Virus genome (UHGV): UHGV-0262902
Direction: 5' to 3' (one strand)
DNA from: a virus
Length of the DNA: 17,675 bases
Shown here: one piece after another, positions 4,288 through 17,675 of the stretch
Position numbering within the stretch: the stretch's first letter is position 1
Layout: the number at the start of each line of letters is the position of its first letter
The notes under the pieces: generated by a model
Databases searched by the model: none
Told to the model about the DNA's origin: nothing
What the model saw: the letters and a program-made list of their open reading frames with translations, nothing else
Made by a program: the position numbers and the translations under genes

Positions 4288-4631
4288 CAGCGCGTTATCT
4301 CGGAATGAATCGCAGTGATGGCCTGACTGTCACTGACCTTGAGCATATCAGCCAGAGTATCGGCGATATCCTGCGCACACCGGTCGGCTCACGGGTGATG
4401 CGTCGTGATTACGGCTCGTTGCTGGCGTCAATGATTGACCAGCCGCAGACCCCGGCGCTTGAGTTGCAGATTAAGGTCGCCTGTTACATGTCCGTGCTGA
4501 AATGGGAACCCCGCGTCACCCTGTCATCCGTCACCACTGAGCGCAGTTTTGACGGGCGAATGACGGTCACGTTAACCGGTCAGCACAACGACACCGGCCA
4601 GCCACTTTCGTTAACCATCCCTGTGAGTTGA
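4284..4631 (+). CDS. W: Baseplate wedge protein gpW (gp25-like; 115 aa)
   Basis: Length and position match P2 gpW between V and J. Confidence 0.85.
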   Translation: MTARYLGMNRSDGLTVTDLEHISQSIGDILRTPVGSRVMRRDYGSLLASMIDQPQTPALELQIKVACYMSVLKWEPRVTLSSVTTERSFDGRMTVTLTGQHNDTGQPLSLTIPVS

Positions 4632-4635
4632 AACC

Positions 4636-5544
4636 ATGCCGATTATCGACCTGAACCAGCTACCCGCACCGGATGTGGTCGAGGAGCTGGACTTTGAAAC
4701 CATTCTCGCTGAACGCAAGGCGACACTGATTTCCCTTTACCCGGAAGACCAGCAGGAGGCGGTCGCCCGTACCCTGACGCTGGAATCCGAGCCTCTCGTC
4801 AAACTGCTGGAGGAAAATGCTTATCGTGAGCTTATCTGGCGTCAGCGTGTGAATGAGGCCGCACGGGCGGTGATGCTGGCCTGTGCCGCCGGTAATGACC
4901 TTGATGTGATTGGTGCCAATTACAACACCACGCGCCTGATTATCACCCCGGCAGATGATTCGACCCTCCCGCCGACACCGGCAGTGATGGAATCTGATAC
5001 CGATTATCGTCTGCGTATTCAGCAGGCGTTTGAAGGTTTAAGCGTCGCCGGGTCGGTGGGGGCCTATCAGTATCATGGTCGCAGTGCCGACGGGCGTGTC
5101 GCGGATATTTCTGTCACCAGTCCGTCTCCGGCCTGCGTCACCATCTCTGTGCTGTCACGTGAAAATAACGGTGTGGCATCCGAAGACCTGCTGGCCGTGG
5201 TGCGTAACGCCCTTAATGGCGAGGACGTCAGGCCGGTGGCCGACCGCGTGACCGTGCAGTCTGCCGCCATTGTTGAATACCAGATAAACGCCACGCTTTA
5301 CCTTTACCCTGGTCCCGAAAGCGAACCCATCCGCGCTGCTGCCGTGAAAAAACTGGAAGCGTACATCACGGCGCAGCACCGGCTGGGGCGCGACATCCGT
5401 CTGTCTGCCATTTATGCCGCTTTGCATGTGGAAGGCGTGCAGCGTGTCGAGCTGGCCGCACCACTGGCCGACATTGTGCTCAACAGTACGCAGGCGTCTT
5501 TCTGTACCGAATACCGCGTCGTGACCGGAGGCTCGGATGAGTGA
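4636..5544 (+). CDS. J: Baseplate assembly protein gpJ (302 aa)
   Basis: Length and position match P2 gpJ; 3' end overlaps the I start. Confidence 0.85.
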   Translation: MPIIDLNQLPAPDVVEELDFETILAERKATLISLYPEDQQEAVARTLTLESEPLVKLLEENAYRELIWRQRVNEAARAVMLACAAGNDLDVIGANYNTTRLIITPADDSTLPPTPAVMESDTDYRLRIQQAFEGLSVAGSVGAYQYHGRSADGRVADISVTSPSPACVTISVLSRENNGVASEDLLAVVRNALNGEDVRPVADRVTVQSAAIVEYQINATLYLYPGPESEPIRAAAVKKLEAYITAQHRLGRDIRLSAIYAALHVEGVQRVELAAPLADIVLNSTQASFCTEYRVVTGGSDE

Positions 5545-6067
5545 TTCGCGCCTGCTGCCGACCGGCTCATCACCGCTTGAAGTCGCCGCCGCAAAAGCCT
5601 GTGCGGAAATTGAAAAAACGCCGGCCAGTATTCGTGAGCTGTGGAACCCGGACACCTGCCCGGCAAATCTGCTGCCGTGGCTGGCGTGGGCGTTTTCGGT
5701 CGACAGGTGGGATGAAAAGTGGCCGGAAGCGACAAAACGCGCCGTTATCCGCGATGCCTATTTCATCCACTGTCATAAAGGCACTATAGGCGCAATCCGG
5801 CGTGTGGTGGAGCCGCTCGGCTATCTCATCAACGTGACGGAGTGGTGGGAAAACAGTGACCCGCCCGGCACCTTCCGGCTTGATATTGGTGTACTGGAAA
5901 GCGGTATCACAGAGGCAATGTATCAGGAAATGGAACGGCTGATTGCCGATGCCAAACCTGCAAGCCGTCACCTTATTGGTCTGAACATTACCCGGGACAT
6001 TCCCGGCTACCTGTTCGCCGGTGGTGTGGCTTACGACGGCGATGTAATTACGGTTTACCCCGGATAA
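5537..6067 (+). CDS. I: Baseplate protein gpI (176 aa)
   Basis: Length and position match P2 gpI, directly upstream of tail-fibre gene H. Confidence 0.85.
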   Translation: MSDSRLLPTGSSPLEVAAAKACAEIEKTPASIRELWNPDTCPANLLPWLAWAFSVDRWDEKWPEATKRAVIRDAYFIHCHKGTIGAIRRVVEPLGYLINVTEWWENSDPPGTFRLDIGVLESGITEAMYQEMERLIADAKPASRHLIGLNITRDIPGYLFAGGVAYDGDVITVYPG

Positions 6068-8887: not shown

Positions 8888-8936
8888 TGTGGTGCGAAAA
8901 GACCAATGAAAGTTATTGATAATAAGGAGGAATCAA

Positions 8937-9722
8937 ATGTCAGGAATAAGATGGTTGGATAAAAAAGATTTAATCCTTAAAGGAATAAATGAAGGCACCT
9001 ACCCAGAATCAGTTTACAAGTTCAGAACTATAGATAAAGCCTGTGATATTCTTCAAAAAAAAGAATTTTACTTTTCATCAGCGGAAAATTTTAATGATCC
9101 ATTTGATTGTATGCTGGATGAGGAAAAAGAATACTCTTTATCAGACTTTACTTGTTGGTTATATTCATATCAGAATGGATTAACCAAGAAGGCAAAGCAG
9201 AACTTAATAGATGTGTATAAAGAAAACAGCCAAGCATTTAATGATCTAGTTAAAAATATAAAAACAAAAGCCGTCAATGCCCATGGCATTTTATCGCTAT
9301 CTAAAACTAATGAAAATGTTCTTTTATGGTCTCATTATGCGGAGAACCATACCGGAGTTGCTATAAAACTCAATATTGCTAAGGATCCAGAGTTCTTTAT
9401 AACCCCCCAAAACATAGTATATATGAAGCAATATATTCCATTAAATTATCTTAGAGACCCTAAAAAATCAATACTCGACACACTCTCTACGAAATCAATG
9501 GATTGGAATTATGAAGAGGAGATTAGAGTTTATAAAAGTAATATTGGAGCCTATAAGATTAAGCCAGAGGCAATAACTGATGTTTTTTTTGGTTTGAAAA
9601 CGCTGGAACAGGATATTGCAAAAATCAAAAATATATGTAGTGAAAATGGTCTAAGCCATGTGAAGTTTCATCGGGCTGAAAAAAAATATGGAGAATTTGC
9701 GCTACGTTTTAATCCTATTTGA
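8937..9722 (+). CDS. Cargo protein A: DUF2971-like protein of unknown function (261 aa)
   Basis: Consensus SD AAGGAGG at 8924-8930, 6-nt spacer, ATG 8937. AT-rich codon usage. Motifs YKFR (27-30), FYFSSAENFNDPFDC (44-58) and LLWSHYAENHTGVAIK (129-144) resemble the DUF2971 signature as I remember it; no characterised function is known to me. Confidence 0.7.
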   Translation: MSGIRWLDKKDLILKGINEGTYPESVYKFRTIDKACDILQKKEFYFSSAENFNDPFDCMLDEEKEYSLSDFTCWLYSYQNGLTKKAKQNLIDVYKENSQAFNDLVKNIKTKAVNAHGILSLSKTNENVLLWSHYAENHTGVAIKLNIAKDPEFFITPQNIVYMKQYIPLNYLRDPKKSILDTLSTKSMDWNYEEEIRVYKSNIGAYKIKPEAITDVFFGLKTLEQDIAKIKNICSENGLSHVKFHRAEKKYGEFALRFNPI

Positions 9723-9808
9723 CTTTTCTATTTAGTAGTTAAATGATAGTGCATTACGGGCCAATTAAATTTAATTCTATGGTTGTGTAGACAATAAAAG
9801 GTAACTAG

Positions 9809-10294
9809 ATGAATCAAGATGAGTTAAAAAATTTTTGTGTTGATGTGCGTGAAGCACTTGAGAAGATGACCAAAAAAGATCATTCACGGCTGTCATCCTT
9901 TAGAAATTCGAACTTTCCAGTGGGATGCTGCGGAGATACATCGAAACTGCTTGCTTATTTGCTTTATCAGCAATTCGGGATAGTCTCTGAAGTACTCGCA
10001 GGATATTACTATGAATCTGATCATAAGTCCCCCGCCAGCGGTCTTTCAAACGGTAATTCACATGCTTGGCTTGTCGTGGATGGAATGATTGTTGATTTGA
10101 CTGCAGATCAGTTCAACGACCGGGGATATAACAATCTTCCCGTCATGATTACATCAGACACTAGGTTTCATGACCTCTTTGCCAATCGTAATGCCTCGTT
10201 TCAACCTTCTCAAGGTAATGAAATTATTCTACCTGATATTCTAAAAATGACAGCATCACATGTGCAGCAAAGGCTTAAAGAGCGAGGTTGGTAA
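9809..10294 (+). CDS. Cargo protein B: small protein with transglutaminase/papain-like Cys-His-Asp motif arrangement (161 aa)
   Basis: ATG 9809 after a weak AAGG; AT-rich. Motifs G-C-C-G-D (Cys40/41), S-H-A-W-LVVDG (His85) and VDLTADQ (Asp96/Asp100) appear in the order and spacing typical of transglutaminase-like cysteine peptidase cores. Assignment is motif-based only. Confidence 0.6.
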   Translation: MNQDELKNFCVDVREALEKMTKKDHSRLSSFRNSNFPVGCCGDTSKLLAYLLYQQFGIVSEVLAGYYYESDHKSPASGLSNGNSHAWLVVDGMIVDLTADQFNDRGYNNLPVMITSDTRFHDLFANRNASFQPSQGNEIILPDILKMTASHVQQRLKERGW

Positions 10295-10613
10295 TGCGGG
10301 TGCAGCAGAATCTAAAGCTGATACTTAAAATTATATAGGAAGAGCATAAACTTATCCTAAATCTGGCTGTAATAGATCCTTTCATATATCGGCCAGATTA
10401 ATATGAAGTAATCCAAATTAGTGTCTGAAAATATAATCAGCTCCATAACAATAGATTTATCGCTTAAAAATAACGTCAACATGAGGGTAGAAAACATCCC
10501 TAAAGATAAGTCTGGTCTAACCTTTGCTCCTCGCTCAAAGCAGACTGTCAGAATTGATAGCGTTTGGGCTATGTAAATTGTCAGTCGGAAAATGAGTGAG
10601 TACAAATCAGGAC

Positions 10614-10641
10614 AGGCGGGCGAATTGCCCGCCTTTTCTTT
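10614..10641 (+). terminator. Rho-independent terminator closing the cargo region, upstream of FI
   Basis: Stem GGCGGGC (10615-10621), loop GAATT, stem GCCCGCC (10627-10633), then TTTTCTTT. The reverse strand lacks a T-run, so it is oriented for the + strand. Confidence 0.7.
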
Positions 10642-10737
10642 ATCTGTTGTTTCATCCACTGACCAGTCAGGTCAAATAGCGTCTCATGCTCTGCACAACA
10701 GAAAATAGTTGCACCCATTAACCACGGAGTTAAACGG

Positions 10738-12515: not shown

Positions 12516-12791
12516 ATGAACAAAGAAAATGTGATTACCCTGGACAATCCGGTCAAGCGTGGTGAGCAGGTTATCGAACAGGTCACGCTGATGAAACCCA
12601 ATGCCGGGACGCTGCGCGGTGTCAGTCTGGCTGCGGTCGCAAACTCCGAAGTCGATGCACTGATTAAAGTGCTGCCGCGCATGACGGCACCGATGCTGAC
12701 TGAGCAGGAGGTCGCCGCGCTGGAGCTGCCTGACCTTGTGGCGCTGGCCGGTAAGGTGGTCGGTTTTTTGTCGCCGAACTCGGTGCAGTGA
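12516..12791 (+). CDS. E: Tail assembly chaperone gpE (91 aa)
   Basis: Small ORF just upstream of the tape-measure gene, with a slippery T-run near its 3' end; length matches P2 E. Confidence 0.85.
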   Translation: MNKENVITLDNPVKRGEQVIEQVTLMKPNAGTLRGVSLAAVANSEVDALIKVLPRMTAPMLTEQEVAALELPDLVALAGKVVGFLSPNSVQ

Positions 12792-12943
12792 CGTTTCCGA
12801 AAAATCTCTCGGTCGATGACCTGATGGCGGATGTGGCAGTGATATTTCACTGGCCGCCATCAGAACTGTATCCCATGAGCCTGACCGAACTCATCACATG
12901 GCGCGAAAAGGCGCTCCGGCGAAGCGGAAACACGAATGAGTAA
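12516..12943 (+). CDS. E+E': E+E' frameshift-extended tail assembly chaperone (142 aa, -1 frameshift at 12764-12770)
   Basis: Heptamer T_TTT_TTG at 12764-12770 in the E frame; the -1 frame is open from 12770 to TAA at 12941-12943 (57 codons, ending ...REKALRRSGNTNE), overlapping the T start by 8 nt. 85 + 57 = 142 aa, the size I recall for P2 E+E'. Confidence 0.75.
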
Positions 12944-17121: not shown

Positions 17122-17340
17122 ATGTTTCATTGTCCTTTATGCCAGCATGCCGCACATGCGCGTACAAGCCGCTATATTATTGACACGACAAAAGAGCGTT
17201 ATCACCAGTGTCAGAACGTGAATTGCAGCGCCACGTTCATCACTTATGAGTCGGTACAGCGATACATCGTGAAGCCGGGAGAAGTCCACGCCGTAAGACC
17301 GCACCCGTTGCCGTCAGGGCAGCAAATTATGTGGATGTAA
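17122..17340 (+). CDS. ogr: Ogr, zinc-finger late-gene transcription activator (72 aa)
   Basis: GGAAGAGG at 17106-17113 before ATG 17122; product MFHCPLCQHAAHARTSRY...CQNVNCSATF has a four-Cys arrangement and matches P2 Ogr from memory. The ORF-track start at 17059 is a TTG extension. Confidence 0.85.
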   Translation: MFHCPLCQHAAHARTSRYIIDTTKERYHQCQNVNCSATFITYESVQRYIVKPGEVHAVRPHPLPSGQQIMWM

Positions 17341-17351
17341 TTACATACAGG

Positions 17352-17377
17352 AAGCCCCTCAGTCGAGGGGCTTTTTT
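17352..17377 (+). terminator. Rho-independent terminator after ogr
   Basis: Stem AAGCCCCTC (17352-17360), loop AGTC, stem GAGGGGCTT (17365-17373), followed by a six-T run. Confidence 0.75.
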
Positions 17378-17441
17378 GTCGATGTGGTCAATGTGTGGAC
17401 GTGACCAGAAATAAATCCTTTTATTTCATTGTATTACGCGT

Positions 17442-17468
17442 AAAAAATAAGCCCGTGTAAGGGAGATT
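17442..17468. other. P2-type attachment-site core (27 bp)
   Basis: AAAAAATAAGCCCGTGTAAGGGAGATT read at 17442-17468, identical to the P2 att core as I recall it; it lies about 100 bp after ogr, where att sits in P2. Confidence 0.6.
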
Positions 17469-17612
17469 ACACAGGCTAAGGAGGTGGTTCCTGGTACAGC
17501 TAGCATTTTATGGGTTATGTTTTTCAGCGAAACAGATGATAACCTTAATAAATGCAGCTGTATGTGATCGGTTTCTAAGAATTTTCCATCCGGGAAAAAT
17601 AATCGAAATTAA

Positions 17613-17675
17613 TCACTTACCGTGGGGGTTACGCGTGGTTTCCCCGGAGAAATTACGCATCAGCAGCGCGTAATT
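17613..17675 (-). CDS. 3' end of a minus-strand ORF entering from beyond the window (20 codons plus stop); identity undetermined
   Basis: Minus-strand frame from 17675 reads NYALLMRNFSGETTRNPHGK then TGA (complement of 17613-17615); the other two minus frames stop immediately. Converges on the att core, as int does in P2, but 20 residues cannot establish identity. Confidence 0.3.
   Translation of the reverse strand, partial: NYALLMRNFSGETTRNPHGK

Follow-up and report, generated by a model that had tools for sequence, protein, structure and literature searches.

The window analysed here is a stretch of 17,675 nucleotides (UHGV virus genome UHGV-0262902), whose right end carries, in this order, the phage gene ogr, its terminator, the elements of a P2-type attachment site, the small RNA gene cyaR and the 3' end of a protein-coding gene that converges on the phage genes from the minus strand. 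ogr, the activator of P2 late genes (17122-17340, plus strand), is the last phage gene before the junction and matches the Pfam Ogr_Delta zinc finger with 73.5 bits. Its 3' end (the aligned part, from 17300) is co-linear with P2 ogr, and its counterpart is annotated as ogrK in RefSeq at the equivalent position of E. coli genomes that are 100% identical to this region. To its left, the window holds ~17.4 kb of uninterrupted P2 late genes, comprising head completion, lysis and tail genes, D and ogr.

The phage arm and the att core

Over 169 bp that begin within ogr and end with the core (17300-17468), the window aligns to P2 without a gap and with 95.3% identity, and this pairwise alignment is co-linear with the annotated terminator, Int P-arm, IHF region and core of P2. 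The Rho-independent terminator of ogr and the phage F operon (17351-17374, plus strand) falls gap-free onto the P2 terminator (24265-24288) and folds into a GC hairpin of 7 bp with a trailing U run (-20.9 kcal/mol, z = -5.1). It is followed by a predicted arm-type binding region for Int in the P arm (17379-17406, plus strand), identical to the P2 feature annotated as protein_bind 'Int, P arm' (24293-24320). This region contains two direct repeats, TGTGGTCA (17383-17390) and TGTGGACG (17395-17402), both in agreement with the consensus of P2-type arm sites, tgTGGaCa (PMC3448106). A putative IHF-binding region (17410-17443, plus strand), homologous by position to the IHF feature of P2 (24324-24357), completes the P arm and carries 5 substitutions relative to P2.

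The att core itself (AAAAAATAAGCCCGTGTAAGGGAGATT, 27 bp) occurs a single time in the window, at 17442-17468 on the plus strand. Its match to P2, which had been proposed from the letters of the sequence, holds at 27 of 27 positions against the annotated attP core of the P2 reference genome (NC_001895, 24356-24382), and the core does follow ogr, as had also been proposed. No match to the 27-mer is expected by chance (200 shuffles, up to 3 mismatches allowed). Searching the window with up to 3 mismatches revealed no second copy, as expected, since attL would lie ~19 kb upstream of the window start.

Many P2-like phages (pro483, 11W, Yersinia vB_YpM_46 and others) share 97-98% identity with the window over ogr and the P arm, only up to query position 129-130. 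They diverge at ~17429-17430 of the window, still within the IHF region and 12 bp short of the core, a point which in these alignments looks like a swap point for att/int specificity modules. Further upstream, overlapping E (12516-12791) and E' (12788-12943) frames precede the tape-measure gene, an overlap that matches the known E/E+E' programmed frameshift arrangement of P2; relatives annotate these frames as 'tail assembly protein' and 'GpE family'. The window also carries non-P2 cargo genes between the tail-fibre assembly gene G and the sheath gene FI, at the position of Z/fun in P2: 8916-9722 and 9809-10294 on the plus strand and 10357-10659 on the minus strand. The first (268 aa) has matches to Pfam DUF2971 (25 bits) and to PDC-S31, a candidate defence family of PADLOC (E = 2.6e-46), the second (161 aa) has a sub-threshold YunG match only and a homologue named 'transglutaminase-like' in RefSeq, and the minus-strand frame (100 aa) yielded no profile or database match. 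The genes at 8916-10659 look like an anti-phage cargo module in a known P2 hotspot.

The host flank: cyaR and trhP

Similarity to P2 stops at 17468, the right edge of the core, and the alignment is random directly beyond it. In a search of 50,697 phage records, P2-type phages matched query positions 1-169 only, that is, up to 17468, and pairwise alignment found no DNA similarity to P2 int or to the P' arm in the region right of the core. In E. coli K-12 MG1655, the same 207 bases (17469-17675), which span cyaR with its promoter as well as the end of trhP, show 2 differences; according to RefSeq, that K-12 region contains cyaR (b4438) and the 3' end of trhP (the former yegQ), and the cryptic P2 remnant PR-X begins there.

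The minus-strand frame is open from the end of the window to a TGA codon at 17613-17615, exactly at the position given in the original prediction. There, this frame was held to be possibly int, a suggestion that the residues do not bear out: the 20 codons before the stop (NYALLMRNFSGETTRNPHGK) are identical to the C-terminus of K-12 TrhP and unrelated to that of P2 Int (GGTEAESVHTVSTVE). We thus assign the frame (17613-17675, minus strand) to the host gene trhP (yegQ), of which the last 20 codons and the TGA are present and which encodes a peptidase-U32-family tRNA U34 hydroxylation protein; trhP/yegQ is also what is annotated at this position in the 100%-identical genomes. The distance to the core differs as well, the trhP stop being 145 bp away as compared to 80 bp for the int stop in P2. 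A GenBank record filed as phage (AY639599.1, 'Phage TP', 2362 bp) spans the whole ogr-core-cyaR-trhP junction with 98.9% identity. Its 'putative protease' is host trhP/yegQ of the peptidase U32 family, and the record is therefore a prophage-host junction rather than pure phage DNA.

Between the core and trhP, and overlapping the core, lies a complete gene that had previously been missed: cyaR (ryeE; 17442-17528, minus strand), which encodes a host Hfq-dependent sRNA of 87 nt. The Rfam model RF00112 (CyaR_RyeE) matches the minus strand at 17445-17530 over its full length (model 1-85 of 85) and scores 100.7 bits, where the gathering score is 47 (E = 1.7e-19). The aligned K-12 gene (b4438) corresponds to 17528-17442 and is identical at all 87 positions; the trhP stop lies 84 bp upstream of cyaR, with the same spacing in K-12. 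Folding and a terminator scan predict a small hairpin and an 11-bp terminator hairpin for CyaR, the latter with its stem at 17450-17477 and its U-tail at 17442-17449, in overlap with the att core. The 27-bp core thus corresponds to the U-tail, the 3' stem arm and the loop of the CyaR terminator, the 5' stem arm (17468-17477) being host-only DNA. Since these 27 bp are common to phage and host, recombination provides attR with a complete cyaR and leaves attL with no more than a 27-bp fragment of the terminator. The gene cyaR thus stays intact upon integration, with its own promoter and terminator.

The region between trhP and cyaR (17529-17612, minus strand) is host DNA that contains the cyaR promoter, and it differs from K-12 by 1 base (17534, T in the window and C in K-12). 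This base sits at approximately position -6 in the promoter of cyaR, past the -10 element and ahead of the transcription start. A CRP-like half-palindrome with 2 mismatches (TGTGATCGGTTTCTAA, 17563-17578) is centred ~42 bp upstream of the cyaR 5' end. Scanning for TGTGA-N6-TCACA gave 14 matches where 8.3 were expected, a rate at which the CRP-like match is not significant by itself and serves as positional support only. CyaR is known to depend on CRP, and by extension of that published work 17563-17578 may be assigned as the CRP site.

With a host gene as the minus-strand frame and host DNA directly after the core, the junction is an attR (P-O-B'), in which the core is O, the site of Int strand exchange. 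The original prediction had considered that the window could not decide between attP and attR; it can, given that P2 homology ends at 17468 and host DNA follows. The attR alternative offered at the time, in which the junction would mark the integration locus, is the true one of the two; the actual target is not a protein gene, being the terminator of the sRNA gene cyaR. It could also be argued that the 27-mer resembles the P2 core by chance, or that it is just the CyaR terminator with no phage junction at all, and the 27-mer does belong to a host gene that is present in prophage-free E. coli. We give this no credence: besides the absence of expected chance matches, 142 bp of P2 sequence (P arm, terminator and ogr) together with 17 kb of P2 late genes precede the 27-mer, and its edge, 17468, is exactly where phage homology gives way to host homology.

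Occupied, empty and decayed sites in E. coli genomes

The junction (17300-17675, 376 bases) is present with 100% identity in several E. coli chromosomes, where it is annotated as ogrK followed by trhP/yegQ. In one of them, GPEC464, the order of genes is yegS, yegR, core, int, C, cox, replication, head, lysis and tail genes, D, ogr, core, trhP, yegP and baeR, with an unannotated cyaR between the second core and trhP. Two perfect copies of the core, 36.4 kb apart, flank this P2-like prophage: attL, beside int (L003 4464-4490, int at 4570-5583), and the copy at 40902-40928. The left copy lies 80 bp from the int stop, as in the attP of P2. The second core copy that was to be sought elsewhere in the replicon is therefore found in the related genome GPEC464, 36.4 kb away and next to int, and not within the window, which extends 207 bp past the core and leaves the attL/int end of its own genome outside.

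To represent the unoccupied site, a query was built in silico from the yegR-side flank of GPEC464, one core and window positions 17469-17675. Many E. coli genomes contain it in full and without a mismatch (100% identity and coverage), for example APEC O2-211, where yegR, core, cyaR and yegQ follow one another. The ogr-core-cyaR-trhP junction (at least 80% of the 376 bases) is present in 1195 of 5426 complete E. coli genomes and the empty site (at least 80% of the query) in 4565, two counts that overlap, as pieces up to ~700 bp apart were joined and 629-bp remnants of the K-12 type can enter both. When the whole window was compared to complete E. coli genomes, none matched at 100% and the best reached 99.2-99.5%. 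The otherwise near-identical prophages of GPEC464 and FDAARGOS_1286 carry an insertion of ISEc12 (IS21 family) from which the window is free; in GPEC464, this IS separates the cargo genes from the sheath gene (L003 31852-34154), whose annotation it truncates.

These layouts also bear on whether the window could derive from an unintegrated or circular phage, in which case the junction would be attP and the minus-strand frame int. The succession of ogr, core and a converging minus-strand frame does mimic the P2 map. Nevertheless, nothing to the right of the core is common to the P' arm or int of P2, the flank is 2 bases off the host chromosome across cyaR and trhP, the frame ends in the residues of TrhP and at the wrong distance from the core, and in prophage-free genomes the very same flank adjoins yegR directly. 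The attP/int identity was therefore rejected, on the loss of P2 similarity past the core, the TrhP C-terminus and the empty site in relatives, and we consider its chances negligible.

Altogether, the sequence identities, the homology breakpoint, the cyaR assignment and the attL and empty-site layouts of the relatives, all observed directly, make us nearly certain that the region is an attR (P arm, core and bacterial B' arm) belonging to a P2-like prophage (Peduovirus) that sits at the classical P2 site, the 3' end of cyaR in E. coli. No data contradict this assignment.

Whether the element behind this attR is a full prophage is a separate matter. K-12 has at this site a cryptic P2 remnant, PR-X (ogrK, yegZ), with an identical P arm, core and cyaR, and such remnants are included in the 1195 junction-bearing genomes. 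As attL and int lie outside the window, the window could likewise belong to a defective, dead element, which would leave the identity of the junction unchanged. We regard this as improbable: the K-12 remnant is merely 629 bp long, whereas the window has its long uninterrupted run of late genes, with ORF sizes that match the annotated full P2-like prophage of GPEC464, and the closest genomes have a full-length element.

In K-12, the annotated start of PR-X lies inside the 3' end of cyaR. At its left boundary in MG1655 (L004 3812-3840, minus strand), a partial core, AAAAAAATAAGCCCGTGTA, is fused directly to yegZ, which derives from gene D; a deletion that began in the attL core and ended in gene D would fit this boundary. 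The yegR-side host flank next to the core also contains a relic that resembles the P2 P arm (TCGATGTGGTCAATG-GAAGACGGTGACCAG compared to TCGATGTGGTCAATGTGTGGACGTGACCAG in P2). It lies to the left of attL in GPEC464 (L003 4412-4462), outside PR-X in K-12 (L004 3849-3878), and also within the empty-site query that matched other genomes at 100%. The DNA that adjoins the core of the empty E. coli attB towards yegR, which lies outside the window and leaves the identity of its junction unchanged, may thus be a decayed P2 P arm (TCGATGTGGTCAATG..GACGGTGACCAG) and the cyaR 3' flank the fossil attR of an older P2-like prophage, a proposal for which we hold belief and doubt in equal measure. If true, present-day P2 phages would integrate into the scar of a predecessor, and the fossil attR might be relevant to the use of some cyaR sites and the avoidance of others, that of K-12 included.

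Integration at an sRNA terminator

Based on established P2 biology, the junction would have formed as follows. P2 Int, a tyrosine recombinase, would bind the arm repeats and the core, IHF would bend the P arm and Int would exchange strands inside the 27-bp core, recombining the attP core with the identical 27 bp of the chromosome. At the resulting junction, cyaR is complete, phage ogr and the P arm are directly downstream of it, and the converging minus-strand frame is the end of host trhP (yegQ), upstream of cyaR. Excision would also require Cox. By the same reasoning, expression of CyaR should stay unaffected by the prophage.

The junction is already known and is ordinary P2 biology, both the cyaR site and the principle of integration at an sRNA terminator being documented. 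The preferred P2 site was reportedly mapped originally by Barreiro and Haggard-Ljungquist in 1992 and named locI in E. coli C. The attR of P2 at its preferred E. coli site and the K-12 PR-X share with the window an identical 27-bp core, and their P arm and ogr terminator are 95-100% identical. The host flank, cyaR then trhP/yegQ, is likewise common to both and to the window. K-12 shows 4 differences over the 376 bases of 17300-17675, but PR-X has kept only ogrK and a fragment of D where the window has the full late-gene set. P2 itself differs from the window by the 5 substitutions in the IHF region and in the cargo found between G and FI. In the genome paper on E. coli W, 'cyaR RNA' is named as the insertion site of Wphi2 (E. 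coli W), P2*B (E. coli B) and the ogr-D' remnant (K-12) (PMC3032704). Wphi2 and P2*B reside in different strains and share phage type and insertion site with the window. E. coli ryeE is also described as 'previously known to be targeted by phages' (Bobay et al., PMC3603311), and a further paper (PMC3333887) concerns sdsR, not cyaR.

Other phages integrate at the 3' end of a small-RNA gene and reconstitute it, among them 186 (tRNA-Ile), Fels-2/SopE-phi (ssrA) and Salmonella phages at ryeB/sdsR. As at these tRNA, tmRNA and sRNA 3' ends, the att core in the window duplicates the 3' end of the gene, with its terminator hairpin, and the gene stays intact. In contrast to integrations in tRNA genes, the target here is an Hfq-dependent sRNA and the core is short (27 bp), covering no more than the loop, the U-tail and a single arm of the stem.

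For annotation, these results fix 17468 as the right boundary of the prophage and trhP-cyaR as the host locus, and add to the window an sRNA gene, cyaR, that was previously unannotated there. They show that the window is chromosomal E. coli-type DNA with an integrated prophage and not a free phage genome, and they provide a clean example of a phage att core that duplicates an sRNA terminator, with the host gene surviving integration.
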